Source: a virus
Reading direction: 5' to 3' (one strand)
DNA: 24,706 nt
IMG/VR virus record: IMGVR_UViG_3300045988_008368
Coordinates: 1 to 24,706 of that record
Shown here: positions 2 through 20,302 of the stretch, piece by piece
Layout: every line of letters begins with the position of its first letter
Position numbering within the stretch: position 1 is the stretch's first letter
The notes under the pieces: model-generated
Told to the model about the DNA's origin: nothing
The model's input: the letters and a program-made list of their open reading frames with translations, nothing else
Database searches by the model: none
Position numbers and translations under genes: made by a program

Positions 2-1237
2 ATCAGGTTACCTGAAATAGTTGGAAGAGGATATAAGTCTTATTGGAACTTTAGAGGACGTTATGTTGCATGCAAAGGCTCACGTGCTTCTAAAAAATCG
101 AAAACAACCGCATTGCGCATCATATACAACATGATGAAATACGATCAGTCGAATACTCTTGTTGTTCGTAAAACTTATCGAACGCTTAAAGATTCGTGCT
201 TTACGGATTTAAAATGGGCCACAAAAAGGTTGGGAGTTGAGAACTTATGGGAATTCAAGTATTCACCTTTGGAAGCAACTTATCTTCCCACTGGACAGAA
301 GATTCTTTTTAGAGGACTTGATGATCCATTAAAAGTAACATCTATTACTGTTGAGTATGGATATTTGTGTTGGGCATGGCTTGAAGAAGCCTATGAGATA
401 ACAAGTGAAAAAGACTTTGATACCCTAGATGAGTCAATTCGTGGTGAGTTACCACCACATCTTTGGAAACAGTGGATGATTACATTCAACCCTTGGAACG
501 AACACCATTGGCTTAAAAAAAGATTCTTTGATGCAGAGAATGACCCTGACATATTAGCTATTACAACCAATTATAAGTGTAATGAATGGTTGGATGATGC
601 CGATTTAAGGTTGTTTGAAAATATGAAGAAGAACAATCCTAGACGATATCAGGTGGCCGGATTAGGAAATTGGGGTATTGTTGATGGATTGGTTTATGAG
701 AATTGGAAAGAGGAAGAATATACACTAGATCAAGTCGTTAACTGTGATTCTGTAGATGGTATTGACTTTGGGTATACGAATGACCCTGCTGCAGTTTTTA
801 TAGGTTTCATTGATACAGAACATAAAAAACTTTATGTTTGGGATGAGGTGTATAAAAAAGGCCTTTCCAACAAAAGGCTTTATGAGGAGATCGAAAGCTC
901 ACATTATCAAAAGAAGTCTTACACGGCAGACTGTGCAGAGCCTAAGTCGATTGATGAGCTAAGAGGGTATGGACTTCGTGTTGAGAAATCGCAAAAGGGA
1001 AAGGATTCCATTATGCATGGGATTCAATATATTCAAGATTTTGAAATTATCATTCATCCTAGATGTGTTAATTTCATAACCGAAATTGGTAACTATACAT
1101 GGGATGAAGATAGATTAGGAAACAAAATAAATCGTCCAATTGATGATTTTAACCACTTAATGGATGCAATGCGATATGCAGTTGAAAAATACACATTTGG
1201 ACGAGTTAAATTAAGGACATTTAAAGGAGGTATTTAA
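2..1237 (+). CDS. terL: Terminase large subunit (PBSX/XtmB-like), 5' end truncated by window edge
   Basis: The frame of ORF 113..1237 stays open back to nt 2. The upstream residues (...GRYVACKGSRASKKSKTTAL) look like the Walker A/P-loop of the terminase ATPase, so the TTG at 113 is not the true start. The C-terminal DDFNHLMDAMRYA is typical of the terminase nuclease domain. The gene sits immediately upstream of the portal gene, overlapping it by 1 nt. Confidence 0.9.
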   Translation: MRLPEIVGRGYKSYWNFRGRYVACKGSRASKKSKTTALRIIYNMMKYDQSNTLVVRKTYRTLKDSCFTDLKWATKRLGVENLWEFKYSPLEATYLPTGQKILFRGLDDPLKVTSITVEYGYLCWAWLEEAYEITSEKDFDTLDESIRGELPPHLWKQWMITFNPWNEHHWLKKRFFDAENDPDILAITTNYKCNEWLDDADLRLFENMKKNNPRRYQVAGLGNWGIVDGLVYENWKEEEYTLDQVVNCDSVDGIDFGYTNDPAAVFIGFIDTEHKKLYVWDEVYKKGLSNKRLYEEIESSHYQKKSYTADCAEPKSIDELRGYGLRVEKSQKGKDSIMHGIQYIQDFEIIIHPRCVNFITEIGNYTWDEDRLGNKINRPIDDFNHLMDAMRYAVEKYTFGRVKLRTFKGGI

Positions 1238-2595
1238 TGAACGCATACATTATTAAACCGGATACGATATTTAATCTATCTGACTATAAAGACATCATTA
1301 ATATTGAAGTGTTGAATGGATTGATAACAAGTCATAAGTCGTTAATCACAGACAGATATAAAAAGCTATATGATGCCTATATTGGAGATTATCCAATCTT
1401 GCATCAAGCCAACAAAGAAGCCTATAAACCCGATAACCGTGTGGTTGTCAACTTTGCAAAATACATTGTTGACACATTCAACGGTTTTTTTATTGGCGTT
1501 CCAATCAAAGTATCATCTAAGAAAAAAGAAATTGATGATTATATCAACTTGCTAGATAAATACAATGATCAGGACGACAACAATGCAGAACTATCTAAGA
1601 TTTGTAGTGTTTTTGGAAAAGGATATGAATTGTATTTCAATGATGATTATGGAAATCTAGGGATTACCTATTTAGATCCAAGAGAAGGATTCATGGTTTA
1701 TGATGAATCAACAGTTCAGAAGCCTAGATATTTCGTAACTTATCAGATTGTTGACGAGGTTATGCGTGGATATATCTACGACAAAACATATAAGTATGAG
1801 TTCAACGATAAAGGCGGTCTTCATGTGTTTGATGGTGTAGAGCATGGATTCAACGATATTCCGGCCACTGAATTTATTGAAAATGAAGAACGTATGTCTA
1901 TTTTTGAATCAACATACAGTTTGATCAATGCCTATAACAAAGCAATGTCAGAAAAAGCAAATGATGTTGATTATTTCGCAGATGCCTATTTAAAAATCTT
2001 AGGTCCAAAATTAGAAGAGTCAGATTTGGTACACATTCGTGATAATCGAACAATTAACTTTGAGTCAATGGATGGAAGTGGTGATGGAATTGTAGTTGAT
2101 TTCATGTCAAAGCCAAATGCAGATGCAACACAGGAAAATCTGATCAACAGATTAGAACGTTTAATCTTCCAAAACTCGATGGTGGCCAATATCAATGATG
2201 AGAACTTTGGAACGTCATCAGGTATTGCATTGAGATATAAGCTTCTTTCTATGTCAAACCTTGCAAAAGCGAAAGAGCGAAAGTTCACATCTGGAATGAA
2301 CCGTAGATATCGAGTCTTATTTAGTAATGCGATCACACATCGTTCTGAGAATGACTGGCTTGAGGTTGAATACAAGTTTACACAAAATTATCCTGCAAAC
2401 TTATTGGAAGAAGCACAGACTGCTGCACAATTATCAGGAATCGTGTCTCACGAAACTCAGTTGTCGCTTATCTCGGCAGTTGAAGATACGAATGCCGAAA
2501 TGGAACGTATCAAAAAGGAAGATGAGAATGATATGGTAGAAACTGAAAACCAAATCTTCCAGAATAACGAGGATTCGCAAAACGATGAGCAGTAA
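1237..2595 (+). CDS. Portal protein (SPP1 gp6-like)
   Basis: 452 aa, directly after terL and overlapping the MuF gene by 11 nt. It has an acidic C-terminal tail (EDENDMVETENQIFQNNEDSQNDEQ). The size and the terL-portal-MuF synteny are typical of SPP1-like head modules. Confidence 0.85.
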   Translation: MNAYIIKPDTIFNLSDYKDIINIEVLNGLITSHKSLITDRYKKLYDAYIGDYPILHQANKEAYKPDNRVVVNFAKYIVDTFNGFFIGVPIKVSSKKKEIDDYINLLDKYNDQDDNNAELSKICSVFGKGYELYFNDDYGNLGITYLDPREGFMVYDESTVQKPRYFVTYQIVDEVMRGYIYDKTYKYEFNDKGGLHVFDGVEHGFNDIPATEFIENEERMSIFESTYSLINAYNKAMSEKANDVDYFADAYLKILGPKLEESDLVHIRDNRTINFESMDGSGDGIVVDFMSKPNADATQENLINRLERLIFQNSMVANINDENFGTSSGIALRYKLLSMSNLAKAKERKFTSGMNRRYRVLFSNAITHRSENDWLEVEYKFTQNYPANLLEEAQTAAQLSGIVSHETQLSLISAVEDTNAEMERIKKEDENDMVETENQIFQNNEDSQNDEQ

Positions 2596-4009
2596 AACAT
2601 ATTGGCGAGATCGTGAACTGGAATGGAAAAAGAAACGTTTAAAAGATGAAAAGCAATATGCGGATGAAATACAAGAAATATATGCAAATATGATGGATTC
2701 GGTTGAAAAGGAAATCGAATCCTTTTTTACTCGCTATGCCAATAAAGAAAACATCACTATGGCAGAAGCCAAAAAGAGAGTTTCTAACATAGATATCCAA
2801 GCATATCAAAGAAAAGCTAAGAAGTATGTAAAGGAAAAGAACTTTTCAGATGAAGCCAATGAACAGATGAGACTTTATAACTTAGCAATGAAAGTCAACC
2901 GATTGGAGCTTTTAAAAGCGAACATTGGATTAGAACTTGTGGCAGGCCATGACGAATTGAAGTCGTATACTGGTGATAAACTGGAAGGAGCCTATTTAGA
3001 AGAACTCAAACGTAATGCTTCTATCTTAGGTGATACAGTGATTGACAATGCGAAGATGGCCAAAACAGTAGCAGATTCATCTTTTAAGAACGCAACCTTT
3101 TCAGAACGAATTTGGGTCAATCAAGAACAGTTAAAAAACAGTTTATCCAGTGTTCTATCTAATGCATTAATCCAAGGCAAGAATCCAAGAGAATTCATTC
3201 CTCAGATTAGAAAGAAATTTGATGTATCAAGATGCAATGCGGAAAGATTGTTGCGAACAGAAATTGCACGAGTTCAAACACAAGCACAGGCAGAATCTTA
3301 CGAAGCTAACGGAATAGATGAGTATGAATATATAGCCTGTAGCTTAAAAGATGTGTGCCCATTATGTAAAGAAATGGATGGCAAGGTCTTTAAACTTAAA
3401 GACATGGAAATAGGAGAAAATGCTCCACCTATGCATCCAAATTGTCATTGTGCGCTCGCACCTTATTCAGACCGCAAGGAGTATGAGAAGTGGCTAGATG
3501 GATTAGCAAACGGAGAGCATAGTTTAAGGTTTGACGAGTGGAAAGAATTAGAGGCTAAAACAAATAACTCTGGTGCATTAAATGGTGCTTGGAATAACGA
3601 AAATGACCCAAACTATAAAAAAAGAGACGAGATTGCAAAAGCACTGTACGCTCAAATTACAAATAGAAAAAAATCTTATGAAATAAAACAAGTAGCTAAA
3701 AATTCAGGTTTTACAGAGGAAGAGGTAAGTAATATATATGAACATGTGTTTATTCGCAAACATAAATTTAGAAGTGGAGAAATAAAAAAGTTTGACCCTG
3801 ACTATTATATGGCACATTCTTGGCTTAGACTTAGACAGGGAAAGGATATTCAAAAACACGATATAACAATGTTAAATCATGAATTAGCTGAAGAGAAAGA
3901 AATGCAAGATAGCCTCGATGTTATATATGAAGATAGTCATGAAAGAGTCCAAAAAATATATAATTATCAAAAAGAATTGCTTGAGTATCTTAAGGACCAT
4001 GATGTATAA
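2585..4009 (+). CDS. Head morphogenesis / minor capsid protein, MuF (SPP1 gp7) family, with about 180-aa C-terminal extension
   Basis: MuF signature region RTEIARVQTQAQAESY ... CPLCKEMDGKVF ... PPMHPNCHCALAPY (about aa 225-295). The residues beyond about nt 3470 are additional to a minimal gp7. Confidence 0.85.
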   Translation: MSSKTYWRDRELEWKKKRLKDEKQYADEIQEIYANMMDSVEKEIESFFTRYANKENITMAEAKKRVSNIDIQAYQRKAKKYVKEKNFSDEANEQMRLYNLAMKVNRLELLKANIGLELVAGHDELKSYTGDKLEGAYLEELKRNASILGDTVIDNAKMAKTVADSSFKNATFSERIWVNQEQLKNSLSSVLSNALIQGKNPREFIPQIRKKFDVSRCNAERLLRTEIARVQTQAQAESYEANGIDEYEYIACSLKDVCPLCKEMDGKVFKLKDMEIGENAPPMHPNCHCALAPYSDRKEYEKWLDGLANGEHSLRFDEWKELEAKTNNSGALNGAWNNENDPNYKKRDEIAKALYAQITNRKKSYEIKQVAKNSGFTEEEVSNIYEHVFIRKHKFRSGEIKKFDPDYYMAHSWLRLRQGKDIQKHDITMLNHELAEEKEMQDSLDVIYEDSHERVQKIYNYQKELLEYLKDHDV

Positions 4010-4033
4010 TTTCATATAGAAAGAGGTGGTAAA

Positions 4034-4252
4034 ATGATTACATTTGAGCTATTAGAATATAAAAATGGCAGATATGTGTATTTGTTTTCACCTGACATAG
4101 ACCCAAATGCAAAAGGAAAAGTTGCGATATACGATGATGGGAATCGCGAAGTGTTGGAACAGTCATCCGTTGATGTTAAGCAGTATTATGCAGGCCATGC
4201 TCTATGGGGTATTTCAGCAGGAGAAAAGGCAGGCACTGTTGCTTGGTGCTAA
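4034..4252 (+). CDS. Small hypothetical protein (72 aa), possible partner or immunity protein of the MuF C-terminal domain
   Basis: RBS GAAAGAGGTGG lies 5-6 nt upstream of the ATG. The ORF is tightly coupled to the MuF gene, 24 nt downstream, and is followed by an intrinsic terminator. I do not recognise a family. Confidence 0.6.
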   Translation: MITFELLEYKNGRYVYLFSPDIDPNAKGKVAIYDDGNREVLEQSSVDVKQYYAGHALWGISAGEKAGTVAWC

Positions 4253-4272
4253 GACATTTATTAAAAAAAATT

Positions 4273-4298
4273 AGGTCACTCAAAACGAGTGGCCTTTT
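4273..4298 (+). terminator. Rho-independent terminator-like hairpin
   Basis: Stem AGGTCACTC (4273..4281), loop AAAAC, stem GAGTGGCCT (4287..4295, one G.U pair), then TTT. It lies 20 nt after the stop of the 72-aa ORF. Confidence 0.6.
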
Positions 4299-4321
4299 AT
4301 TATGCAAGGGAGCGATATTAT

Positions 4322-4630
4322 GTGATAAGAATTAAGATTAAACAGACAAAACGTGATTGCTTGATTGAAGTACATGGCCATGCGTATTACGCTCCGATAG
4401 GAAAAGATATCGTCTGCAGCGCTATCTCAGTACTATTTGCGACATTGGCCAATTCAATTGACATGACATCCGATGCATTTTGCAGATACGATAGTCCTGA
4501 TGAGAATTACAAGACGTTGTATATCTCAGGACTAGACCTTGCTGGAGAATTAGCAATAAATTTCTTCAGAATTGGATGCAAAGGCACAGAAGAAGCATAT
4601 CCTGAATGTGTGGAACTGAGAGATGTGTAA
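4322..4630 (+). CDS. prp: Prp-like cysteine protease (ribosomal-processing cysteine protease / DUF464 family), phage-encoded
   Basis: EVHGHAYYAPIGKDIVCSAISVL matches the Prp/YsxB catalytic His ... (G)xDIVC(A/S)A(V/I)S motif. The track ORF starts at GTG 4289, inside the upstream terminator hairpin. GTG 4322 has a GGGAG RBS 9 nt upstream and gives the family-typical N-terminus MIRIKI..., so I use 4322. Confidence 0.8.
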   Translation: MIRIKIKQTKRDCLIEVHGHAYYAPIGKDIVCSAISVLFATLANSIDMTSDAFCRYDSPDENYKTLYISGLDLAGELAINFFRIGCKGTEEAYPECVELRDV

Positions 4631-4682
4631 TCACAAATATTTGGAGCGTGTCGAAAGACAATATTATGATCAATGGCTAGAG

Positions 4683-4719
4683 TGCATCGTTGAAGTACGA
4701 AATCAACGGTGCATTTTTT
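4683..4719 (+). terminator. Rho-independent terminator-like hairpin in the 246-nt gap between prp and scaffold
   Basis: Stem TGCATCGTTGA (4683..4693), 9-nt loop, stem TCAACGGTGCA (4703..4713, one G.U pair), followed by TTTTTT (4714..4719). Confidence 0.65.
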
Positions 4720-4876
4720 GTGGAAAAGCCAAGACTTATAAAGTCTACATATCCACATTACCAAACAAGACCAAGCATTCACGTCGTTAAACTGTATGGG
4801 TTATAGGCCAAGCATTTATGCCTTAAAAAGATATGGGAAATGACAAGCAAAGTCAGAAAAATAGGAGGAAATATAT

Positions 4877-5497
4877 ATGAAAAAATTCAATGACAGACTA
4901 CCTTTTTGCTTACAACTTTTTGCAGATGAAACTTCAGGTGAAAATGAGGGTACAGAAACAAAAAATACTCAATCAACTGAAGGACAAGACAACCAAGAAA
5001 AAAACAAAGCATCTGAAAAAAAGTATTCAGATGAAGATTTGAATGCGATTCTTGACAAAAGGTTTGCACGTTGGAAAGCGGATCAAGAAAAAGAAAAAGC
5101 AGAAGCTAAGCGCTTAGCAGAAATGAATGCTCAAGAACGAGCAGAAGCAGAACGTGATAAAGTAAAAAAAGAGTTGGATGAATTGAAAGCAAAAAATGCG
5201 ATTGCAGAAATGACAAATGAAGCACGCAAAATGTGCACAGAGCACAATATTAACGTTGGTGATGACCTTTTATCTGTTCTAGTTAATCAAGATGCAGATA
5301 AAACAAAGAAAGCGGTTGATGCATTCGTTAAGATGTTTGAATCTGAAGTAGAAAAAGCAGTTAAAGAAAAACTGAAAGGCAACGGTCCTAAACGTGGAGG
5401 TTCAAACAAAGGGGTAACTCGTGAATCAATCTTGAATATCACTGATCCGATGGAAAGACAACGCATGATTGCGGAAAACATGGATTTATTCCAGTAA
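4877..5497 (+). CDS. Capsid scaffolding protein
   Basis: Strong RBS AGGAGG. 206 aa, highly charged and coiled-coil-like (KADQEKEKAEAKRLAEMNAQERAEAERDKVKKELDELKAK). It lies immediately upstream of the major capsid gene. The N-terminal leader ends in LQLFA. Confidence 0.85.
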   Translation: MKKFNDRLPFCLQLFADETSGENEGTETKNTQSTEGQDNQEKNKASEKKYSDEDLNAILDKRFARWKADQEKEKAEAKRLAEMNAQERAEAERDKVKKELDELKAKNAIAEMTNEARKMCTEHNINVGDDLLSVLVNQDADKTKKAVDAFVKMFESEVEKAVKEKLKGNGPKRGGSNKGVTRESILNITDPMERQRMIAENMDLFQ

Positions 5498-5518
5498 TAG
5501 AAAAAGGAGAACTAACAT

Positions 5519-6724
5519 ATGAAAAAAATTTATAAAGGTATGAACTTGCAAATGTTTGCAGCACCTACAGGATTAACAGGAACAGGCAACATCCAAGTTA
5601 GAGCACACGAAATTGATTTTGTTACTAGTTTTGGAAAGAACATCCAAGCTTTATTGGACGTATTAGGAATTATTCGTCCAATTCGTAAAGCAAACGGTTC
5701 TGTTTTGAAAACAAAGAAAGTAACAGGAACATTACAGGACGGACATGTAGCAGAAGGCGAATCAATTCCATTAAGCGAATACAAAGTTGAAGAAGAAGTG
5801 TTCGATACAATTCAAATCGAGAAATTCCGTAAAGCCGTTCCTATTGAAGCAATTGCAGAGAAAGGATATGAAGCTGCAGTATCTGATACTGACGAACAGT
5901 TCCGTATTGATTTGCAAGATAACATCACTGATCGCTTATATGCTCAATTAAATTCAGGTAGCTTAGTAGGACATGAAGCGACTTGGCAAATGGCTATCGC
6001 AATGGCAATCGGTAATGTTAAACACAAATTCCAACAAATGAAACGAAATACTACTGGTATTGTTGTATTCGTAAATACTTTGGATGCTTACCGCTATTTA
6101 GGAGAAGCTAATGTATCTATGCAGACTGCATTCGGTTTAACATACATTAAGAACTTCTTAGGAGCAGATATTGTATTTTTAACAGACCGAGTTGCAGAAA
6201 AAACAGTAGTGGCTACTCCAATGAACAACATCATTGCATATTATGTAGATCCAAGCGATTCTGAATTTGTTAAAGCAGGACTTTCATATACTACTGACAG
6301 TACTACTGGCTTCTTAGGATTCCATGTAGAAGGGAACTATGATCGTGCTATTTCTGATATGTTCGCTATCATGGGATTACGTTTAATGTGTGAATACCAA
6401 GATGCAATTGCACACTTTGCAGTAGGTGGTTCTGATACTCAGACATTGCGTAATTTAACATTAACGGCTTCTAAAGGTGAAGAAACAGGAACTACAAAAG
6501 TAGCAGTTGACGAACAGTTGCAATCTATGAATAACAAATTCAAATTCAAGGTAGGAGCTTCTGAAGAAACAGTGGCATATGGTACAGATGTAAAATCTTG
6601 GAAGAATTTCGAAGAAGGAGCAGATATCAAAGCAGCAGAATCTAATCATTGTACAGTAGTTGAATGTGACAGAAACTACAAAGCAGTATCAAAAGGCGAT
6701 GTAGTTGTTGATTTAAAGGCGTAG
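5519..6724 (+). CDS. Major capsid protein with appended C-terminal Ig-like/decoration module
   Basis: RBS AAGGAG. 401 aa, following the scaffold gene. N-terminal leader MKKIYKGMNLQMFA. The C-terminal ~95 aa (KFKFKVGASEETVAYGTDVKSWKNFEEGADIKAAESNHCTVVECDRNYKAVSKGDVVV) resemble the beta-rich surface modules appended to capsid and tail proteins of Firmicute phages. Confidence 0.85.
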   Translation: MKKIYKGMNLQMFAAPTGLTGTGNIQVRAHEIDFVTSFGKNIQALLDVLGIIRPIRKANGSVLKTKKVTGTLQDGHVAEGESIPLSEYKVEEEVFDTIQIEKFRKAVPIEAIAEKGYEAAVSDTDEQFRIDLQDNITDRLYAQLNSGSLVGHEATWQMAIAMAIGNVKHKFQQMKRNTTGIVVFVNTLDAYRYLGEANVSMQTAFGLTYIKNFLGADIVFLTDRVAEKTVVATPMNNIIAYYVDPSDSEFVKAGLSYTTDSTTGFLGFHVEGNYDRAISDMFAIMGLRLMCEYQDAIAHFAVGGSDTQTLRNLTLTASKGEETGTTKVAVDEQLQSMNNKFKFKVGASEETVAYGTDVKSWKNFEEGADIKAAESNHCTVVECDRNYKAVSKGDVVVDLKA

Positions 6725-6734
6725 GTGATTGAAG

Positions 6735-7065
6735 ATGTCGACAACAACCGTATTAAATGATGTAAAACTGCTTCTTGGTTTGCAAACTGATGATGAAAAG
6801 CTAGATACCCATTGTAAGACTTACGGAAAGTCGACTAAAAGCGCTTCTGAGCGTAAAAATCATACCGGATGAACTAGAATATATCATTACCGAAGTGTCC
6901 ATCAAACGCTTTAATAGGATTGGTTCTGAGGGTGTTCAAACACATTCAGTTGAAGGGGAGTCAATGTCATTTAATGATGATGACTTCTCTTCTTTCTCTT
7001 CTGAGATTCAATCCTGGAGAGATGAGCAAGCCAATCAAAATAAAGGAAAGGTTCGGTTCTTATGA
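6735..7065 (+). pseudogene. Head-tail connector (gp6-like / Phage_connect_1-type) gene interrupted by a +1 frameshift
   Basis: ATG 6735 (RBS AGGTGA) gives MSTTTVLNDVKLLLGLQTDDEKLDT, then runs into nonsense and a TGA at 6870..6872. The +1 frame is open from 6805 to TGA 7063..7065. It reads (P)IVRLTESRLKALLSVKIIPDELEYIITEVSIKRFNRIGSEGVQTHSVEGESMSFNDDDF..., the conserved body of this family, and ends in an ATGA overlap with the next gene. The ORF track lists no ORF of at least 60 aa here, which fits a real break in the given sequence. Removing one C from the CCC run at 6808..6810 restores a single ~109-codon ORF. Confidence 0.75.
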
Positions 7066-7364
7066 GGTACGATAAGCCTATTTACTTTCAAAGGTATGTG
7101 CAAGGTTCTTATAACGAGAACACAGGCAACTATGAAGATGGTTCACCTGTAGAAGAAATGGTAATGGCTTCCATAATGGATACAAAAACACAAACTATGA
7201 TGCAGGTATACGGACAAATCAAACAAGGAAGCCTTACTTGTCATATTCAGAATATCTATCAAAAGTCTTTTGATTATATTCGAATCGGTGCAAAGAGATA
7301 CAAAGTTGATTACTCACGAAGACTCCGAACAAAGGAGTCTTTTATTCTGTCTGAGGTGCAATAA
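7062..7364 (+). CDS. Head closure / head-tail adaptor protein (SPP1 gp16-like)
   Basis: 100 aa, in the position after the connector gene. The pattern PIYFQ ... tandem Met-rich region ... YIRIGAKRYKV is typical of phage head closure proteins. Confidence 0.7.
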   Translation: MRYDKPIYFQRYVQGSYNENTGNYEDGSPVEEMVMASIMDTKTQTMMQVYGQIKQGSLTCHIQNIYQKSFDYIRIGAKRYKVDYSRRLRTKESFILSEVQ

Positions 7365-7712
7365 ATGGCAAAAGTTGAAATAAGAGGATTAGATAAACTG
7401 CAGAAGAAGCTCAAAAAGAATTGTTCTTTGGAAGATGTGAAAACAGTTGTTTTGAAGAATGGAATGGATATGCAAAATAAAACTGTTAAAAATGCAGTAT
7501 TTACAAAAGGGTATTCAACAGGCACTACGAAAAGAAGTATCAGAGGTGAAACACGTGATGGCGGATTCACATATGCAGAAGGACCATCTACACATTATGC
7601 ACCTTATGTTGAATTTGGAACACGTTTTATGGATGCACAACCTTTTGTTAGGCCTGCGTTTAAACAACAAGTACCAATATTCAAGTCAGACATGAAAAAA
7701 CTAGTTAAGTAG
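7365..7712 (+). CDS. HK97 gp10-family tail component
   Basis: HYAPYVEFGTRFMDAQPFVRPAF is the hallmark Y.xYVEFGT...PF..PA motif of the HK97 gp10 family. The start codon directly abuts the previous stop. Confidence 0.8.
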   Translation: MAKVEIRGLDKLQKKLKKNCSLEDVKTVVLKNGMDMQNKTVKNAVFTKGYSTGTTKRSIRGETRDGGFTYAEGPSTHYAPYVEFGTRFMDAQPFVRPAFKQQVPIFKSDMKKLVK

Positions 7713-7720
7713 GTGATGCA

Positions 7721-8131
7721 ATGGATTCACAACAAGAGTTATTCATTGCACTAAAAGTGCAATTAGAAAAAGCGTTAAAAAGTAAAGGCGTTAATGTATA
7801 TGACACGTTTCTTCCAAGTGAAGGGACACCATATCCATATGTATACATTGGTTCAAGTCAACTAGTGGACGATTACGGAAATAAAACAATGATTCTAGGC
7901 ACTATCACGCAGGTTGTGGATGTTTGGCACAACAATCCTAGGAAGCGTGGAGAATTGTCTGAAATTATGCAAACCATTAAGAAAGTGGCTAGACAAATCA
8001 ACCACACAAACAACTTTGCTTTTATGATCCAAAATATCAACCAACGGATATTATCGGATTCAAGTACAGGAGCACCATTGATGCATGGTGTTCTAGAGTT
8101 GGATTTTAGAATTACAGGAGGAATAAAATAA
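7721..8131 (+). CDS. Tail terminator / tail completion protein (SPP1 gp17-like)
   Basis: 136 aa, immediately upstream of the major tail protein gene and overlapping it by 1 nt. Assigned by synteny and size only. Confidence 0.6.
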   Translation: MDSQQELFIALKVQLEKALKSKGVNVYDTFLPSEGTPYPYVYIGSSQLVDDYGNKTMILGTITQVVDVWHNNPRKRGELSEIMQTIKKVARQINHTNNFAFMIQNINQRILSDSSTGAPLMHGVLELDFRITGGIK

Positions 8132-8676
8132 TGAAATTTGATTTACAAATGTTCGCAGAAGCAATGAAAGAATCAGTTGCAGGTAAACAGTTGATCTATC
8201 TTTTCAGAGTTGCAGAAGATTCAAAAAAAGAAGATGCTAGTGCAATTGCATTCCCAACAGAAAACGAACGAAACGTAACAAAAGATGCAGATACTACTGC
8301 TACAAAAGATGGAACTATTCGTACACCATCAGTGGCAGAAATTGAAATCACATCAACATCTGTTTTGGCAAAAGGTGATGCAATTATCGACAAATTAGAA
8401 AAAGCCATGTTGGCAGATAAGTTAGTCGAATGTTGGGAAGTAAACTTAGCAGAAGAAGGAACTGAAACAAATGTCGGCAAGTTTAAATCTAAATACTACC
8501 AAGGATATTTGACTGAATGCTCAATTTCATCAGAAGCAGAAGGAGTTGTTGAAGTTGATTTAACATTCGGGGCAAATGGAAATGGTGCAGATGGATATGC
8601 AACAGTAACTAAAGAGCAACAGGAAGTAGCATCTTACGTTTATAAGGATGTAACTAAAGAAACAGGAAACGTATAG
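8131..8676 (+). CDS. Major tail protein
   Basis: 181 aa, in the position between the tail terminator and the G/GT chaperone, followed by a terminator hairpin as is common for highly expressed tail tube genes. The N-terminus MKFDLQMFA carries the same LQMFA motif as the capsid protein. Confidence 0.8.
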   Translation: MKFDLQMFAEAMKESVAGKQLIYLFRVAEDSKKEDASAIAFPTENERNVTKDADTTATKDGTIRTPSVAEIEITSTSVLAKGDAIIDKLEKAMLADKLVECWEVNLAEEGTETNVGKFKSKYYQGYLTECSISSEAEGVVEVDLTFGANGNGADGYATVTKEQQEVASYVYKDVTKETGNV

Positions 8677-8682
8677 AACATA

Positions 8683-8703
8683 GGGGCAGAGATTGCCCCT
8701 TTT
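8683..8703 (+). terminator. Rho-independent terminator-like hairpin after the major tail gene
   Basis: GGGGCA (8683..8688), loop GAGAT, TGCCCC (8694..8699), then TTTT. Confidence 0.65.
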
Positions 8704-8733
8704 ATATTTGTATTTAGAAAGTGAGGACTTTGA

Positions 8734-9117
8734 ATGAGTAAATACATGGAAATTGAAGTAAATGGTGAAACATATCAACTAGTAGCAGGGTTTGGATTTT
8801 TACATGAAGTCAATAAAAGAGTGACTGTAGATGTACCAAACACTAAAAACAAAAAAGAAGTAGGTTTGAAGTTTATGGTCGCAAGCATCATGGATGGAGA
8901 TATTGATGCATTAGTCGATTGTATCTTCTGTATGAATATTGGGCAAACACCACGTTTAAATAAAGCATACATTGAAAGATATTTAGAAGATGTAGAAGAT
9001 ATCGACAAAGTTTTTGAGGACGTAATCAATTTTTTATCTCAAGCGAATGCGTGCAAGAAAGAAGTGAAATCACTGATGACGAGCATGCAGAAAGAAGAGA
9101 AAGAAGAGAAGAAATAG
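8734..9117 (+). CDS. Tail assembly chaperone (gpG analogue)
   Basis: 127 aa between the major tail protein and tape measure genes. It overlaps a downstream ORF in the -1 frame, the classic G/GT arrangement. Confidence 0.8.
   Translation: MSKYMEIEVNGETYQLVAGFGFLHEVNKRVTVDVPNTKNKKEVGLKFMVASIMDGDIDALVDCIFCMNIGQTPRLNKAYIERYLEDVEDIDKVFEDVINFLSQANACKKEVKSLMTSMQKEEKEEKK
9030..9036 (+). promoter_or_regulatory. Candidate -1 programmed ribosomal frameshift heptamer T_TTT_TTA
   Basis: In the G frame the codons are aaT TTT TTA, an X_XXY_YYZ heptamer. The -1 frame is open from 9018 (after TGA 9015..9017) to 9461, so this heptamer lies within the permissive overlap 9018..9117. Confidence 0.6.
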
Positions 9118-9461
9118 ACGAAACATTTGATGAAATGTATGAGCGTGTCGCTTTGACTTGTTTTAGATATCTAGACTTCAAAAGTTTGGATCAGGTAAAT
9201 AATCTTACCCCTCACGAATATCGCCTTTTAATGAAGGCCAAAGAGCTACAAATGGTGGATGATCAGTATTATCTGCATTTGCAAGCGTACCTAAATATGA
9301 CTGCACAAGCTAAAAAGCAAGTGGGCAAGAAACAGAAAATGGTATACACGAAATTTAGCAAGTTCTTTGACTATCAGAAAGAGTTGGATCGTGTCATGGG
9401 AATAAAGAAACAAAGCAAGTTTGATAAGTTGGCAGAGTTCATAAATAAAAAGGAGGGATAA
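9036..9461 (+). CDS. Frameshift extension of the tail assembly chaperone (gpT part of the G-T fusion, joined to 8734..9036)
   Basis: The track ORF 9051..9461 is in the -1 frame relative to 8734..9117, has no convincing RBS of its own, and ends 2 nt before the tape measure start. The predicted fusion is about 242 aa. Confidence 0.7.
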   Translation: MSSECVQERSEITDDEHAERRERREEIDETFDEMYERVALTCFRYLDFKSLDQVNNLTPHEYRLLMKAKELQMVDDQYYLHLQAYLNMTAQAKKQVGKKQKMVYTKFSKFFDYQKELDRVMGIKKQSKFDKLAEFINKKEG

Positions 9462-9463
9462 CA

Positions 9464-12286
9464 ATGGCAGAAAGTTTTAGTGTTGAAGCCATACTAACGG
9501 CAACCGATAAGAATATGACCTCAACCATGAACAAAGCTATAGGAGCGTGTCAGTCGTTTGGTGATAGAGTTAAATCTATCGTTGCAGGTGTCGGCATAAC
9601 AAAAGCTATTGGCGCAACAATGAACGTTCTTAGCTCATCCATGGATGGTGCTATCACAAGATTTGATACCATGCAATCCTATCCAAAAGTTATGAAGTCT
9701 TTGGGGTTTTCAATTGAACAATCTCAAAAGAGTGTTGCAAAGTTAAATCAGTCAGTACAAGGCTTACCTACAAACTTGGCAGATGTTGTAACAACATCTA
9801 AGTCGTTGGCTGCCGTTACAAGTAATATAGATAAGGCAACTGATACTACAATTGCATTAAATCATGCGTTTTTAGCGAGCGGTTCAAGCTCAGAAGATGC
9901 ATCACGTGGATTACAACAGTATTCACAGATGCTTGCTAAAGGTACAGTTGATATGCAATCATGGAGAACCTTACAAGAAACAATGGCACCAGCATTAACT
10001 AAAGTTGCAAAGAAACTAGGTATTACAAGTGGTAATGCAAATGAATTGTACGATGCATTACAGAATGGAACGATTACATTTGATCAGTTTAATGATGCAA
10101 TGATTGAATGTGATACAGAAACAGGTGGCTTTGCAGAAACTGCATTAGAAGCATCTAAAGGTATTAAAACTTCTATGACTAACATCAAGAGTGCAGTACA
10201 AAACTTAGAACAAGGGTTCTTGTCTGCAATGAATAACATGTTGAAGTCAAAAGCCATGGGTGGATTAGTTGATAATCTAGAAAAGATTAAATCTAAAATC
10301 TATGACTTTAGAAATTCAATCATGGAATCCAAGGATGATGGTTTGACATGGGACTTTAAGCCTGGAGTCTTGGAGAATGTATCAAAAGCTATGGATTGGC
10401 TTGCAGATAGAGCAAACAATGCTAAAGCTATGGTCCAACAATTCTATGATGGATTTATGAAGACAGATGCAGTACAAAACGCTATTACATTGTTCGACAA
10501 AGTCAAAGATGCTATTGGAAATGTAATGGATAAGTTGCAAGACAGTAAAGTCTTTGAGCAGTTAGGACAAGACATTGGAAATATCATTGCAAAAGTAGAA
10601 GATGTAACTGGCAAAATTGCAAATTTCATAGCAAATCTTAAAACGGAAGATGTTAAGAGATTTGCAAGTGCAGTCAAATTATTGGCAGGAGCATTTGTTG
10701 CGATCAAAGTCGGTAGCAAAGTATCTAGTATGATTAGTGGTGTCGTTGGCACGGCTAAAGGTGGATATTCAAAGTTAAAATCAATTATTGACAAAATCAG
10801 AGGATTAGGAGAAAAACCAACTCAAGAAATACCTGGACAATTACCACAAAATGGTACTCCAAGTGACGGTATTGGTGATGCAACAATGCGAACTGCTCAG
10901 AAAACATCTAAAGCTGCACAGATTATTAATTCTGCATTTGAAGGAATTTCAAATGTTATTACTTCGGTATGTGAAGGTGTAAAAGGAATTATAACAGGTC
11001 TAGGAGAAGCTATTAGTACTGCTTTTCAAGGTATCGGACAAGGCGTTAAATCGGCTTTGGAAGGAGTCGGAACAGTCATTGAATCGCTTGGTACTGCAAT
11101 CAGTACGGTAGCACAAGGTATTGGACAAGGGTTAGCAACTGCATTTACAGGATTAGGAACTGCAATCGCAATGGTGCCACCAACTACATGGCTTGCGTTG
11201 GCAGCGGCTATTCTAGCAACTGGTGCTGCAATGGCATTGGTTGGATCACAAGGTGAAGGTTTACAAATGGTTCTTCAGGGTGTTGCAGATGTTGTTTCTG
11301 CGTTTGGACCTGTTATCAAAGAAGTATTTGAAGGTATCAGTGGTGTAATTACATCATTCGGTGAAACAGTAAGTGGAATCTTAAACTCAGTATCAGGAGT
11401 GATTGAATCTATTGGCCAATCGGCATTAAATGCTGGTAAAGGATTTAAAGAATTAGCTAAAGGTATTCAGATTATTACTGGTTTAAATTTGTTTGATATG
11501 GGAGCTAGCTTAGCTGCAGTAGCAACCGGAATAGGAGCTATATCTGCAGCTTCTGTAGGCATAGGGAGCGCTGGTACTCAGATGATGGCCCTTGTAACTG
11601 CTATTGGTATGGTAGGTACTACATTTGCCAGTACGTCAGCTACAGTGACAAACTCATGCAATAACATTATCAGTGCAATGTCTGCAGCAGAAGCTAGGGC
11701 TTCAACTTCAGGAACTGCAATGGGCACTAAGTTTACATCAGGACTTAAAGGAAGCTTATCAAAGAGTGTTTCAGTAGCACGATCTTCATGTACTAACATC
11801 ATTAGCGCATTCAATGCGTGCCAGTCTAAATCTTATTACTGTGGTCAGATGATTGGTCAAGGATTGGCGAATGGTTTAAGAGCTAGTGAAGGTACTGTTA
11901 GAGCTGCGGCCGCTAGTTTAGCAGCAGCTGCAGATGCCGCAATTCGTGCAAAAGCTAAGATTGGCTCACCATCTAAAATTGCAGATAAAGATGGTATGTG
12001 GTGGGGTAAAGGATATCGCAATGGTATTTTAGGAATGGTTCCTCAGGTTAAAAAGGCTGCAGAGAAGTTATTATACCTTCCACTAATGAGCGCTCCTAAA
12101 ATGACTTTTGGAGGTGTTGTGAGTGATATGAATGCAGAATACGATTACACTAGCAACGTTCAATTAACGGTTGAAACACCACTTTACATTAATGATCGTG
12201 AATTTGCACGTGCAACATATAGAGCAAATCAGAATGAGATTAACAGAAATGCAAAGCTTAATGAGAGATTGCGAGGTAACAGATAA
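9464..12286 (+). CDS. Tail tape measure protein
   Basis: 940 aa, the longest ORF after the chaperone. It has a helical N-terminal half, Gly/Ala-rich hydrophobic repeats (GIGQGVKSALEGVGTVIESLGTAISTVAQGIGQGLATAFTGLGTAIA...) and a C-terminal AKIGSPSKIADKDGMWWGKGY motif typical of TMPs. Confidence 0.9.
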   Translation: MAESFSVEAILTATDKNMTSTMNKAIGACQSFGDRVKSIVAGVGITKAIGATMNVLSSSMDGAITRFDTMQSYPKVMKSLGFSIEQSQKSVAKLNQSVQGLPTNLADVVTTSKSLAAVTSNIDKATDTTIALNHAFLASGSSSEDASRGLQQYSQMLAKGTVDMQSWRTLQETMAPALTKVAKKLGITSGNANELYDALQNGTITFDQFNDAMIECDTETGGFAETALEASKGIKTSMTNIKSAVQNLEQGFLSAMNNMLKSKAMGGLVDNLEKIKSKIYDFRNSIMESKDDGLTWDFKPGVLENVSKAMDWLADRANNAKAMVQQFYDGFMKTDAVQNAITLFDKVKDAIGNVMDKLQDSKVFEQLGQDIGNIIAKVEDVTGKIANFIANLKTEDVKRFASAVKLLAGAFVAIKVGSKVSSMISGVVGTAKGGYSKLKSIIDKIRGLGEKPTQEIPGQLPQNGTPSDGIGDATMRTAQKTSKAAQIINSAFEGISNVITSVCEGVKGIITGLGEAISTAFQGIGQGVKSALEGVGTVIESLGTAISTVAQGIGQGLATAFTGLGTAIAMVPPTTWLALAAAILATGAAMALVGSQGEGLQMVLQGVADVVSAFGPVIKEVFEGISGVITSFGETVSGILNSVSGVIESIGQSALNAGKGFKELAKGIQIITGLNLFDMGASLAAVATGIGAISAASVGIGSAGTQMMALVTAIGMVGTTFASTSATVTNSCNNIISAMSAAEARASTSGTAMGTKFTSGLKGSLSKSVSVARSSCTNIISAFNACQSKSYYCGQMIGQGLANGLRASEGTVRAAAASLAAAADAAIRAKAKIGSPSKIADKDGMWWGKGYRNGILGMVPQVKKAAEKLLYLPLMSAPKMTFGGVVSDMNAEYDYTSNVQLTVETPLYINDREFARATYRANQNEINRNAKLNERLRGNR

Positions 12287-13812
12287 TGTATGCATTCGTA
12301 AATACAGTAAATAGTGGCATCGTCGGTACTAACCTACCGACAGAAGCCATGTCATATAATGGCGTATATTTAGAAAATGAAATAGATGGATATCGTACAC
12401 TTTCTGTAACAGGACGTGAGTTGATGGAATCAGAAGTAAAACATACTGAAATTGATGGAATGGATGGTTCTTATTACAGATATAAAACAACTCCTGCAAG
12501 AACGATTACTGTTAAATATCAGTTGAGAGCAAGAGGAAACAGAGAATTTCGAGAAGCTTACAACAAGATGAATAAATTGTTGAGTGGCGAGCAAGTAAAA
12601 GTCATTTTTAATGATGAAAGCGACAAGTATTTCATTGGAACTAAGACATCTAACACACAAGTTGATGGCGGAAGTAATAACGTAATCGGTGAAATCGAAA
12701 TCTATTGCTCAGACCCTAGGAAATATTCAACTGCAGAAAAAGAGTTCACTGCAACGGATGGAGTGTTAAACATTGTCAATGAAGGAACTGTACCTGTAAG
12801 TATTGATTATGAGGTTCAGACAACATCTGAAACCGGATATATTGGTATCGTATCAACTGAAGGAGTGATGCAGTATGGAAAGATTGAAGAATTAGATGGC
12901 GAAACATATCAGAACAGTGAATGTTTAGCTACAATCGATAGTTTTTATAATTGTGCAGATGATAAAAGTGGAACGGATATAATGCATCCACAGTACGGCG
13001 CTAATGGAACTTGTGCTAAAAAAAGTTGGTTTGGTCAAAACTTTCTAGGCTTTGGAACAGTCGGAACAAAAAAGGGGAATGCTAGTGGTGGATTAAGAAC
13101 GCTAGTAATACCTGCAGATTCAAATGGAGATTCAAGTGGTGCACAGAACTTCTATTGTTATTTTCATTTGTTGTTTTATGCAGGACTTATGGGTCAGACT
13201 GGTGAAATGTGCATCAACTTCTTGACTGCAGATAACAAATTGATTTGTGGATGTAACTTTTATAAAACAGATACAGTCGGAAATACAGGTCACTATGAAA
13301 TATGGGCGAATGGCAAGATGTTGAGAAATTGGAACTATACTACTTCTCATTTACAATCTCAAAATCCGTGGTATTGGAATTGGGGACATTGCGATATCTT
13401 GAAAGAAGGCGGAAATATCCGCTTCTTCTATTACGGAGGATATTACAATTATTACATTCCAGAGATTTCAAATATGAAGTGTGCCAAGATTCAAGTTGCT
13501 TTCAAACAATGGGGTAATCGAGGTGGAAATCAATTGATGTCTATGATGGGATTTGATGTAATCAATTATTTCAAAAATAATGTATCAAAATGGAGAAACA
13601 TCCCCAACAGATATCCTAATGGTACAAAAATCACGATTGATGGCAAGTCATCTCATGTTTATGTGAATGGTATGGCTAGACCTCAAGATGAGGTGCTAGG
13701 AACTAAGTATTTTAAAGCACCAGTAGGAACTACAGAGATAAAGACTACGTGCTCAAGCTGGTCAAAATCGAAGCCGACAGTGAAAGCTAGAATAAGGGAG
13801 GCATGGTTATAA
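12286..13812 (+). CDS. Distal tail protein (Dit), extended ('evolved') form
   Basis: It follows the TMP gene with a 1-nt overlap. The N-terminal ~170 aa (SYNGVYLENEIDGYRTLSVTGRELMESEV...) resemble the siphovirus Dit / phage tail family. At 508 aa it is about twice the size of a minimal Dit, which implies inserted domains. Confidence 0.7.
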   Translation: MYAFVNTVNSGIVGTNLPTEAMSYNGVYLENEIDGYRTLSVTGRELMESEVKHTEIDGMDGSYYRYKTTPARTITVKYQLRARGNREFREAYNKMNKLLSGEQVKVIFNDESDKYFIGTKTSNTQVDGGSNNVIGEIEIYCSDPRKYSTAEKEFTATDGVLNIVNEGTVPVSIDYEVQTTSETGYIGIVSTEGVMQYGKIEELDGETYQNSECLATIDSFYNCADDKSGTDIMHPQYGANGTCAKKSWFGQNFLGFGTVGTKKGNASGGLRTLVIPADSNGDSSGAQNFYCYFHLLFYAGLMGQTGEMCINFLTADNKLICGCNFYKTDTVGNTGHYEIWANGKMLRNWNYTTSHLQSQNPWYWNWGHCDILKEGGNIRFFYYGGYYNYYIPEISNMKCAKIQVAFKQWGNRGGNQLMSMMGFDVINYFKNNVSKWRNIPNRYPNGTKITIDGKSSHVYVNGMARPQDEVLGTKYFKAPVGTTEIKTTCSSWSKSKPTVKARIREAWL

Positions 13813-14987
13813 TGGAAAATATAAGAATCGCAGTATTAACTCCTTATGACAAAGTTCTAACGTTTCTAGACAACACAGTAACTAGTTGTATGCATTATTT
13901 TGATGAAACATTGCATACATACTTGAAAGGCTCAGCATATACATTTGAATTCACTACATTGACTGCACATGATGATGCAGCCTTTTTAGTTGAAGGAAAT
14001 AAACTGAGCTTTACAAGAAAAAACAAAGGCTACTACTTAACTATCATGAACGTTGAAAAGGGCGGTGATACAACAACTGTTACCGCCTATGGTCTTTGTC
14101 TTGAGTTAACAAACGAATATGTAGATGCATATAAAGCTCCTAGAGCTATGTCATTTGCGGAATATGTAAATGCGTATGGATTTGAGCAATCGTTTGTGAT
14201 TGGAAAAAATGAAGTATCAGATAAACGTATTACACACGAATGGACTGGCAGTGATACAGTGCTTGCAAGATTGTATTCAATCGCAAATGTATTTGATGCA
14301 GAGCTAGAGTTTGTTACTCAATTAAATGATGATTACTCGTTGAAGAATGTTGTGTTGAATATTTACAGAGCGCATTCAGATTCCGCTCAAGGAATGGGAA
14401 GTGATAAACGCAGTACGATCTTAAGATATCCTAATGATGTTTACGGAATCACTAAAACAAGTGATATTACAGAGTTGTATACAGGTATCAGACCTACGGG
14501 TAATAATGGGTTACAACTTAACTCGATTAGTGGCCGTGTTGTAAAAGATTCAAATGGAAATGTTTTGTATAAAGTTCAAGGTAACAATATACTTGCACCT
14601 CAATCTAGAGATAGATTTCCTTCAACATTGCTTACAAATCATTCAAACGATATGTATGCAGTGCTAGTGTGGTCTTATGAAACAGACAGTGTAGAAACCT
14701 TATATGGTCAAGCTTTGGCTCAATTGAAAAAGAATTGTGTTCCTAAAGTTACATACGATGTAGATGCATATATTGATGCAGATATCGGTGATACGTTTAC
14801 TATCGAAGATGCAGAGTATAGTCCTACATTGTATTTAGAAGCACGAATTACAGAACAAGAGATTTGTTTCACGGATTCCGAGAAGTGCAAGACTATTTTT
14901 GACAACTTTGAAGAAAAACAATCGCAGATTAGTTCGGCTCTTATTTCAGAAATGAACAAGATGATTGAGTTAAAAAAAAGTTTATGA
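13803..14987 (+). CDS. Tal / phage minor structural protein N-terminal (Prophage_tail-like) domain; upstream part of a split tail-fibre gene
   Basis: 394 aa after Dit. The start MENIRIAVLTPYDKVLTFLDN ... TAYGLCLELTNE resembles the anti-receptor N-terminal region of Lactococcus/Streptococcus phage Tal proteins. It ends 8 nt after an A8 tract, where the +1 frame continues the protein. Confidence 0.75.
   Translation: MVIMENIRIAVLTPYDKVLTFLDNTVTSCMHYFDETLHTYLKGSAYTFEFTTLTAHDDAAFLVEGNKLSFTRKNKGYYLTIMNVEKGGDTTTVTAYGLCLELTNEYVDAYKAPRAMSFAEYVNAYGFEQSFVIGKNEVSDKRITHEWTGSDTVLARLYSIANVFDAELEFVTQLNDDYSLKNVVLNIYRAHSDSAQGMGSDKRSTILRYPNDVYGITKTSDITELYTGIRPTGNNGLQLNSISGRVVKDSNGNVLYKVQGNNILAPQSRDRFPSTLLTNHSNDMYAVLVWSYETDSVETLYGQALAQLKKNCVPKVTYDVDAYIDADIGDTFTIEDAEYSPTLYLEARITEQEICFTDSEKCKTIFDNFEEKQSQISSALISEMNKMIELKKSL
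14972..14979 (+). repeat. A8 homopolymer at the frame break between the Tal N-domain and the fibre body
   Basis: The sequence reads gag tta aaa aaa agt tta TGA. The +1 frame is open from 14974 and reads KKVYEGSIVSSNGVLFKNDSDSTKLTALVKDDGVDIT..., running straight into the track ORF 15046..17412. Confidence 0.85.
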
Positions 14988-15045
14988 AGGTTCGATTGTA
15001 TCTTCAAATGGGGTTCTTTTTAAAAATGATTCAGATTCAACTAAA

Positions 15046-17412: not shown

Positions 17413-17475
17413 GGATTGAAAGGTGATAAAGGAGCAACAGGGGCTCAAGGCCCTACTGGTGCGACTGGTACTGGT
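17350..17475 (+). repeat. Collagen-like Gly-X-Y repeat 2 (14 triplets) containing an in-frame TAG
   Basis: GAQ GDR GAT GAT GER GPQ GP* GLK GDK GAT GAQ GPT GAT GTG. The Gly-X-Y register is preserved across TAG 17410..17412. Confidence 0.9.
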
Positions 17476-18159: not shown

Positions 18160-18163
18160 TTAA

Positions 18164-20053: not shown

Positions 20054-20302
20054 TTATTTAATTCGTTTCCAAAAGTAAGTTACAATGGATGGCTGTAAAT
20101 TATTATGTGCTTGGTTTCCTCCTGTGTTTGTTGTATTACTCATATAGCCACCATTAAACCATGAGTTATTTGATGCGGATTGAATATTTCCTTTTCCGTC
20201 AATCCAAGCGCAGTCATTAAATTTATGCGCATGATTAGGCATTTCTTGTATTGTTAGTTGGTGCTTGTATTCTCCGTATGTTTTTCCGGATGTAAATGAC
20301 AT
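20054..20302 (-). CDS. Silent alternative fibre-tip cassette A (82 aa, collar-domain C-terminal half)
   Basis: MSFTSGKTYGEYKHQLTIQEMPNHAH ... GGNQAHNNLQPSIVTYFWKRIK is paralogous to the last 100 aa of the fibre. There is no Shine-Dalgarno sequence upstream. Its stop codon abuts the fibre stop codon. Confidence 0.75.
   Translation of the reverse strand: MSFTSGKTYGEYKHQLTIQEMPNHAHKFNDCAWIDGKGNIQSASNNSWFNGGYMSNTTNTGGNQAHNNLQPSIVTYFWKRIK

Follow-up and report, generated by a model that had tools for sequence, protein, structure and literature searches.

The window analyzed here is a 24.7 kb stretch of viral DNA (positions 1 to 24,706 of IMG/VR virus record IMGVR_UViG_3300045988_008368; 36.6% G+C) that comprises the late region of a siphophage of gut Firmicutes. 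Its head module carries an open reading frame (ORF) for a cysteine protease of the Prp family, and three of its virion assembly proteins, the scaffold, the major capsid protein (MCP), and the major tail protein (MTP), begin with short leaders that resemble the N-terminal leader of ribosomal protein L27. The features concerned are listed below; here and throughout, an apostrophe marks a predicted or known scissile bond and a hyphen before the last residues marks the end of the leader motif.

4322-4630, plus strand: Prp-family cysteine protease, 102 amino acids (PF04327, 6.4e-16; phrog_4478, 9.2e-18)
4877-5497, plus strand: DUF4355 head scaffolding protein, "scaffolding protein Gp46" (PF14265, 7.8e-31)
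4877-4924, plus strand: scaffold leader MKKFNDRLPFCLQLFA-DETSG, predicted cleavage after Phe15 (F'A)
5519-6724, plus strand: MCP with a C-terminal Ig-like (SbsC_C) domain (phrog_544, 8.2e-36; PF18316, 1.3e-10, residues 319-395)
5519-5560, plus strand: capsid leader MKKIYKGMNLQMFA-APTGL, predicted cleavage after Phe13
8131-8676, plus strand: TP901-1-family major tail (tube) protein, 181 amino acids (Phage_tail_2 PF06199, 1.7e-14; TIGR02126, 82.8 bits against a cut-off of 37)
8131-8157, plus strand: MTP leader MKFDLQMFA-EAMKES, predicted cleavage after Phe8

The Prp ORF is placed between the gene for a MuF-like minor head protein and the scaffold gene. This is the usual slot of a prohead protease, between the portal/MuF and the scaffold/MCP genes, and Pfam and PHROG profile searches found no prohead protease of the HK97, ClpP, or U9/U35 type in the head module of the window. 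Canonical prohead proteases (HK97 gp4/S78, ClpP-like S14/S49, U9/U35) share with Prp this gene position and a presumed head-trimming role, but they differ from it in fold, which is unrelated, and in catalytic type. They act inside the procapsid and are not known to process tail-tube proteins.

The ORF starts at a GTG (4322) about 9 nt downstream of an AGGGAG Shine-Dalgarno sequence, and its product begins MIRIKIKQTKRDCLIEVHGHAYYAPIGKDIVCSAIS; this start fits the relatives, several of whose Prps begin MIKIKIKQ and one of which begins with V. Against the PF04327 profile the product scores 58.8 bits (gathering cut-off 27) over profile positions 1-89 of 90. Numbered from the same start, the catalytic dyad consists of His20 and Cys32 (G-H-A...G-K-D-I-V-C-S), which align with His22 and Cys34 of Staphylococcus aureus Prp (PDB ID: 4peo/7kld), G-H20-A and D-I-V-C32 being in register; the latter pair are the catalytic residues of the S. 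aureus enzyme (PMC9405229). A sequence search of the PDB returned nothing besides S. mutans SMU.848 (2g0i) and S. aureus Prp, and a word-indexed protein search gave 13 matches, close relatives only. The dyad motif, G-H-x...D-[ILV]-[ILV]-C, is kept in 65 of 65 distinct Prp homologs from related loci; in an alignment of 12 Prp sequences the Cys is invariant and the His is present in at least 90%. In the AlphaFold2 model, strands 2-8 and 12-19, helix 27-49, strands 53-60 and 63-69, and helix 73-92 form the beta-beta-alpha-beta-beta-alpha topology of the Prp fold, and all 14 of the best Foldseek matches in the PDB are Prp structures (7kld, 7jvs, 2g0i, 2g0j, 1s12, 2idl, and 4peo; TM-scores 0.62-0.73). 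Judged by profile, alignment, and fold, the ORF is a divergent, phage-borne member of the Prp family (PF04327/MEROPS C108), and its predicted activity is proteolysis at the F'A bond of an L27-type leader. It is a phage paralog or clade, not an ortholog of the ribosomal ysxB, because all 11 NCBIfam cellular-Prp equivalog models score it at 19-36 bits (best 35.7) against cut-offs of 122-225, by which phage and cellular Prps are here told apart, and because the gene lies among phage head genes, not between rplU and rpmA.

The leaders of the scaffold (15 residues), the capsid protein (13), and the tail protein (8) end in CLQLF'A, NLQMF'A, and DLQMF'A, respectively, and each of the three genes has its ATG 8-9 nt after AGGAGG or AAGGAG. 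When all six frames of the 24.7 kb are translated, LQ[MLFHIVY]FA turns up three times, in each case at one of these N-termini; 300 shuffles averaged 0.09 occurrences and never gave more than 2. Host L27 leaders follow the motif MLxx(D/N)LQ(F/L)F'A (PMC9405229), and the window leaders fit it save that P2 is Met in two of them. Since they fit this general host motif, no orthogonal specificity is evident from the leader sequences, in a comparison that uses published L27 leaders, not those of this phage's own host. In the AlphaFold2 model of the MTP, residues 1-17 are coil (predicted local distance difference test, pLDDT, 53-67) and the tube fold begins at about residue 21. All three leaders are predicted to be absent from the mature proteins. 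A preliminary description of the window had reported this Prp ORF and the three leaders, and all four lie where it placed them, with exactly the sequences that it gave. The profile score and the alignment bear out its assignment of the ORF to a Prp/DUF464-type family with a His/Cys dyad; its view that the leaders are genuine and L27-like agrees with the shuffling result and with their conservation in relatives.

Megablast of window positions 4000-9000 against 50,697 phage records gave no match, and a scan of genome contigs with the capsid protein alone found no relative, whereas a scan with an alignment of the MTP succeeded. Among the IMG/VR loci fetched with the tail protein or the Prp, 149 of 157 hold Prp, scaffold, MCP, and MTP together. 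These relatives keep the leaders (...CLQLFA-D, ...NLQMFA-A, and ...DLQMFA-E/D), and the residues just past the cleavage site vary by sub-lineage (EAMKESVA, DKVIEAVN, DAVLETVQ). In more distant relatives, retrieved by exact-protein look-up, the order is portal, MuF, small ORFs, Prp, DUF4355 scaffold, capsid, and then tail protein. Most of 120 tail-protein homologs (down to 54% identity) begin x(1-20)-(N/D/G)-L-Q-x-F-A-E-A-V-Q-G-K-K, and a leaderless minority begins M-A-E-A-I-Q-G-K-K, that is, exactly at the predicted P1' Ala. Because the leaderless homologs start at P1', the MTP leader is a discrete module bounded by the predicted scissile bond. When 1.84 billion cluster representatives were searched, the leader was found on 18 of 43 scorable full-length representatives of the tail family, and these 18 are concentrated in the sub-family nearest to the window.

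Among about 11,000 stop-to-stop ORFs from 87 related loci, an N-terminal LQxF[AGS] is present on 62 scaffolds, 49 MCPs, 71 MTPs, and about nine proteins of an alternative capsid family, and essentially nowhere else; matches to LQxF[AS] in tape-measure proteins were rejected as leaders, being an internal conserved ...(D/E)LQDF(A/S)... motif. The leader consensus is (K/R)-x-hydrophobic-(N/D/G)-L-Q-(L/M/V)-F'A. Positions P4 (Leu), P3 (Gln), and P1 (Phe) do not vary, and about 90% of the leaders have Ala at P1', a conservation that the motif scoring filter partly forces. At P2, Leu predominates, with M, V, I, K, R, or Q in the remainder; at P2', scaffolds and tail proteins have an acidic residue and capsid proteins have A, Q, or V. 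Within a locus, P2 of the MCP and P2 of the MTP agree in 30 of 44 cases (23.4 expected; permutation p = 0.0008). Most of the pairs are L/L and relatedness was uncontrolled, and an orthogonal specificity of the phage Prp is unsupported. Taken across these sequence collections, the combination of Prp with three leaders is a common but barely studied trait of a lineage, not a one-off. The head module of some related phages also includes a gene for a retropepsin-like aspartic protease (PF13650/PF13975), located immediately 5' of Prp (L159, 5737-6222; L160, 5355-5840).

A tail-protein profile scan of one genome per species yielded 80 prophage loci, mainly from Lachnospiraceae, other Clostridia, and Erysipelotrichales, with a few from Enterococcus and Gemella; the nearest relative is a prophage of Faecalibacillus faecis (70% identity of the tail protein). 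Five Firmicutes-type prophage contigs come from metagenome-assembled genomes (MAGs) labeled Bacteroidaceae, Fibrobacter, Tidjanibacter, Bacteroidales, and Veillonella (L165, L168, L178, L219, and L231). Such labels are probably binning errors, and MAG host labels in this survey need caution. Co-occurrence of the MTP leader and Prp was counted within 10 kb on either side of the MTP gene in 63 dereplicated loci having at least 4.5 kb upstream of that gene:

MTP leader present, Prp in the locus: 51 loci
MTP leader absent, no Prp in the locus: 8 loci
MTP leader absent, Prp in the locus: 3 loci
MTP leader present, no Prp in the locus: 1 locus (a truncated prophage)

The two features are strongly associated (Fisher's exact p = 3.6e-7, uncorrected for phylogeny). 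The eight loci with neither feature come from Enterococcus (4), Gemella (2), a Veillonella-labeled bin (1), and Acutalibacteraceae (1). Seven of them retain a recognizable L27-type scaffold leader, and several also a capsid leader (examples are ...MNLQYFA-E, ...LHLQFFA-D, and ...MDLQTFA-V); the isolated Enterococcus phage vB_ElaS_B1578 behaves like these Prp-less loci with a leaderless MTP. The counts support the view that the leader of the tail tube and a phage-borne Prp gene are linked in evolution.

Seven loci, from Lachnospiraceae and other Clostridia, encode Prp, a leader-bearing MTP, a tail assembly chaperone (TAC), a tape measure protein (TMP), Dit, and Tal, in that order:

L166, Ca. 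Allocopromorpha, 8056-20513: gap of 39 nt between the Prp gene and the tube gene
L190, Faecalicatena orotica DSM 1287, 4448-16461: Prp at 5389-5676, first in the operon; tube gene at 5943
L210, F. contorta
L212, Ruminococcus MAG
L215, F. fissicatena KCTC 15010
L222, Dorea MAG
L225, Lachnospiraceae MAG

No terminase, portal, MuF, capsid, or connector gene is recognizable in the seven by single-pass phmmer with the window proteins (E <= 0.01); the search is less sensitive than iterative profiles, and "head-less" is meant here in that sense. The Prp catalytic motif is kept in all seven, and in L210 and L212 a short, scaffold-like, leader-bearing fragment remains between Prp and the tube gene. Upstream lies an XRE/ImmA-type pair or a small helix-turn-helix gene, followed further upstream, where the sequence extends, by cellular genes. 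From their gene content these loci look like F-type tailocin-like elements. As described in the accessible portions of the reports on two F-type tailocins, the Listeria monocin (PMC11830787) and a C. histolyticum tailocin (bioRxiv 10.64898/2026.06.17.733002), the likeness extends to the TP901-1-like tube, TAC, TMP, Dit, Tal, and the XRE/ImmA-type switch, whereas the tail-only elements differ in that their first genes encode Prp and a leader-bearing tube protein; the same portions make no mention of a Prp gene or of N-terminal processing of the tube protein for either tailocin. The elements of F. orotica DSM 1287, F. fissicatena KCTC 15010, and F. contorta belong to cultured strains. Because the tube protein is the sole leader-bearing protein left in these loci (barring the remnant in L210 and L212), Prp would act there on the tube precursor, and the tail-only elements are the strongest in-silico argument that it does so.

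In the work of Wall et al. 2015, S. aureus Prp is said to process L27 as well as the scaffold gp46 and the capsid protein gp47 of phage 80alpha. Both phage proteins are cut at F'A by the host Prp (PMC5744158). The window shares with this system the protease family, the dyad, the fold, and the logic of an N-terminal ...NLQxF'A leader, and it has a head module of the 80alpha type (portal PF05133, MuF PF04233, scaffold PF14265). By BLASTP, its MuF-like protein, scaffold, and MTP are homologous to gp44, gp46, and gp53 (33%, 31%, and 33% identity, respectively); the scaffold alignment (1.5e-17) spans the leader, gp46 being an experimentally proven Prp substrate, and the MTP match reaches 4e-24, while no similarity between the window capsid protein and gp47 was detectable by BLASTP. 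The two systems differ in that gp53 is without a leader, in that 80alpha lacks a Prp gene at the gp45 position (between gp44 and gp46), which is where the window has it, and in P2 of the leaders, which is L or M in the window but F or H in the S. aureus/80alpha system. The window Prp differs from S. aureus Prp, moreover, in representing a divergent clade that stays well short of the equivalog cut-offs for cellular Prps.

A leader on a tail-tube protein, which the preliminary description had not seen described, is already in print: Kizziah et al. 2017 (PMC5744158) remark in their discussion that the phi13 major tail protein carries the Prp motif, and the sequence, MIEKLKQAPRFLKLNLQHFA-DTG (...LKLNLQHFA-DTG), was confirmed here. 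This S. aureus siphophage resembles the window in carrying an L27-type leader on the tube protein, but its tail protein has 317 residues against 181. A head maturation protease is annotated in phi13, and the stretch examined lacks a Prp gene, so that host Prp is presumed to act. Nor is a phage Prp new as such, since homologs form the PHROG family phrog_4478 ("peptidase") and occur in Brochothrix phage BL3, Lactococcus phages TP712 and PLgT-1, Oenococcus phage Krappator, and Dorea phage DO134P1. In BL3, gp6 is a Prp and leaders are present on gp8 (MLKNLKMNLQLFA-E), gp9 (MIKKLRMNLQKFA-A), and gp14 (MNKIKMDLQKFA-G). BL3 and DO134P1, both cultivable isolated phages, thus resemble the window in pairing a phage Prp with scaffold, MCP, and MTP leaders, although their Prps are only 30-36% identical to that of the window and the BL3 MTP is shorter and different; their records leave the Prp gene unannotated or call it a "peptidase" and draw no link to the leaders. 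TP712 has a Prp and leaders on two head-module proteins (scaffold/MCP), its MTP being leaderless, and orf47 of TP712 starts where the mature part of BL3 gp14 would begin. In DO134P1 (OP172779.1, L246) the unannotated Prp ORF lies at about 2290-2590 of the locus, between DO134P1_00011 and _00010, and the annotated scaffold start, MANLQLFAEG..., probably truncates the leader, given the upstream in-frame sequence MKHMNNVYAGWRIPMANLQLFA. The literature that was searched contained no description of a phage-encoded Prp or of its link to tail proteins, with an earlier mention in Wall et al. 2015/2017 or in the BL3 genome paper being possible. The preliminary proposal that this phage brings its own Prp and extends the leader logic to the tail tube therefore holds in part: the tube leader is tied to a phage Prp (51, 8, 3, and 1 loci in the above count), but neither is peculiar to this phage, given the IMG/VR loci (149 of 157) and the isolated phages. 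That a phage copy frees processing from dependence on the host Prp, as the same description suggested, would be a possibility at most.

Drawing on the family membership, dyad, and fold of the protein, on the motifs and their conservation, and on the genomic coupling, we consider it probable that the phage Prp is the phage's own morphogenetic protease and that it would remove the scaffold, capsid, and tube leaders at F'A. Scaffold, MCP, and MTP would be made as precursors with short L27-like N-terminal leaders; Prp would recognize P4 Leu, P3 Gln, and P1 Phe and cut before the small P1' Ala, the same cut that S. aureus Prp makes on L27 and on gp46 and gp47 of 80alpha, and the phage enzyme, rather than host Prp alone, would do the cutting. 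The leader may hold these proteins assembly-incompetent or chaperone-bound until it is removed. On the tube protein it would cover the N-terminal arm, which takes part in the contacts between rings of TP901-1-like tubes; in the monocin, whose tube protein is TP901-1-like, this arm contributes to ring-to-ring contacts (PMC11830787). A broader version of this proposal, which we put forward tentatively and which may well not hold, is that Prp and leader form a portable propeptide-protease module that gates the polymerization of siphophage tail tubes in addition to head assembly, with the leader masking the N-terminal arm of the tube protein until the element-encoded Prp acts, and that the module is so indispensable as to be kept as the first gene in the head-less, tailocin-like Lachnospiraceae elements.

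Several points weigh against assigning the cleavage to the phage enzyme. Cleavage of the leaders, in this phage and in its relatives, is entirely something that we infer, and the model of the Prp is of moderate confidence only (pLDDT 67.6). Three loci combine a Prp with a leaderless MTP; the co-occurrence is, moreover, confounded by shared ancestry, the Prp-less loci being mostly those of Bacilli phages, and only Prp genes within the 10 kb flanks were counted. In 80alpha, cleavage of the capsid and scaffold proteins is dispensable, although the scaffold leader itself is essential (PMC5744158). A Prp of its own is almost certainly present in the host, as in all Firmicutes with a long L27, and this enzyme could cut host-type phage leaders, as it does in 80alpha and presumably in phi13 and the Prp-less Enterococcus and Gemella relatives; because the phage leaders fit the host-type motif, the host enzyme could suffice. 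Host Prp might then cut all three leaders, leaving the phage copy another job, such as boosting a limiting host activity during the burst, manipulating host L27 or ribosome maturation, or countering a host response. The Enterococcus and Gemella relatives, which have scaffold and MCP leaders without a phage Prp, agree with this, as do the MTP leader of phi13 and the match of the phage leaders to the general L27 motif. We nevertheless regard it as unlikely, given that the tail-only elements retain Prp beside the sole leader-bearing gene, that Prp is syntenic with head genes, in the protease slot, across a wide lineage, and that the MTP leader is almost absent from loci without Prp.

The leaders may instead serve as Prp-binding chaperone or assembly tags, in which case some of them, especially that of the tube protein, would stay on or be removed incidentally. 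The proposal that Prp is a chaperone of L27 (PMC9405229) lends this some plausibility, and so does the behavior of the 80alpha scaffold and capsid proteins just described. A tag of this kind would not, however, readily account for P1 Phe and P1' Ala, Gly, or Ser being as conserved as P4 Leu and P3 Gln (in part an effect of the filter), for the retention of the catalytic His and Cys in all the phage Prps, or for leaderless homologs that begin exactly at P1', implying that it is the mature end that functions; we judge it quite improbable. That the motifs are chance matches or artefacts of wrong start codons is conceivable for a motif of five residues, yet this idea is effectively refuted by three occurrences against 0.09 expected, all N-terminal behind strong ribosome-binding sites, and by conservation in hundreds of homologs. 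Removal of the leaders by the phage-borne Prp remains the reading that we favor.

The remainder of the window is laid out as follows:

113-1237: large terminase
1237-2595, plus strand: SPP1-type portal (PF05133, 2e-116)
2585-4009, plus strand: MuF-like minor head protein (PF04233, 4.1e-22; 33% identity to 80alpha gp44, 2.6e-54)
Between the MuF-like gene and the Prp ORF: two small ORFs
4623-4790, plus strand: small Cys-rich ORF, 55 amino acids, CxxH...CxxC (phrog_30609, unknown function, 8.7e-4)
Between the MCP and MTP genes: connector and completion proteins
Downstream of the MTP: tail assembly chaperones, tape measure, Dit, and Tal
Downstream of Tal: collagen-like and DUF859/Gp10_C fibers, and a recombinase with spare fiber tips
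20054-20302, minus strand: Gp10_C tip cassette
20265-20597, plus strand: Gp10_C tip cassette
20598-20876, minus strand: Gp10_C tip cassette
20881-21774, minus strand: tyrosine recombinase
Last in order: holin-like ORFs and an amidase

The Cys-rich ORF, which lies between Prp and scaffold and overlaps the stop codon of Prp (ATGTGTAA), accompanies the Prp-scaffold pair, with a homolog in 143 of the 157 related IMG/VR loci. Further downstream, a tail-fiber gene (18164-20053; DUF859 and Gp10_C) is followed by the three Gp10_C tip cassettes, which are promoterless and alternate in orientation. A 56-nt inverted repeat (89%) pairs the fiber gene (19742-19797) with the last cassette (20830-20885), and more inverted repeats of 18-50 nt lie at the cassette starts; by its sequence layout, the set of cassettes and recombinase looks like a shufflon-type swap of receptor-binding tips. 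The collagen-like fiber gene is split by an in-frame TAG (17410-17412) into ORFs 15046-17412 and 17416-18159. The TAG falls at the Y position of a Gly-X-Y triplet (...GERGPQGP, stop, GLKGDKGATG...), where relatives have CAG or CAA (Gln) in 14 loci and ACT (Thr) in two others. Recoding was rejected because TAG ends other ORFs of the window normally (9 of the 24 counted) and because relatives have a Gln codon; the TAG is a C-to-T nonsense change or a sequence variant.

A Prp tag on a tail-tube protein is thus already known in print, and phage Prp homologs are already known in databases; what is new is how widespread the trait is, how tightly a locus-borne Prp and the tail leader are associated, and the existence of Prp-led tail-only elements. 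In gut Firmicutes, a large lineage of phages and tail-only elements has a divergent Prp of its own instead of borrowing that of the host, and in this lineage the tail-tube protein, not the head proteins alone, bears the cleavage tag. Narrow-spectrum antibiotics that target Prp are being sought, and Prp is the textbook case of a phage borrowing a host protease. A proteolytic checkpoint in the assembly of non-contractile tails would be one of which we have met no earlier description. If the leaders are indeed cleaved, a previously unrecognized maturation protease of a common gut-phage lineage would have been identified, the leaders with their varied P2 residues (L, M, V, I, K, R, Q) would offer, together with their proteases, a natural panel of Prp-substrate pairs for studies of specificity, and proteolytic control of the assembly of siphophage tubes and tailocins would become directly testable.

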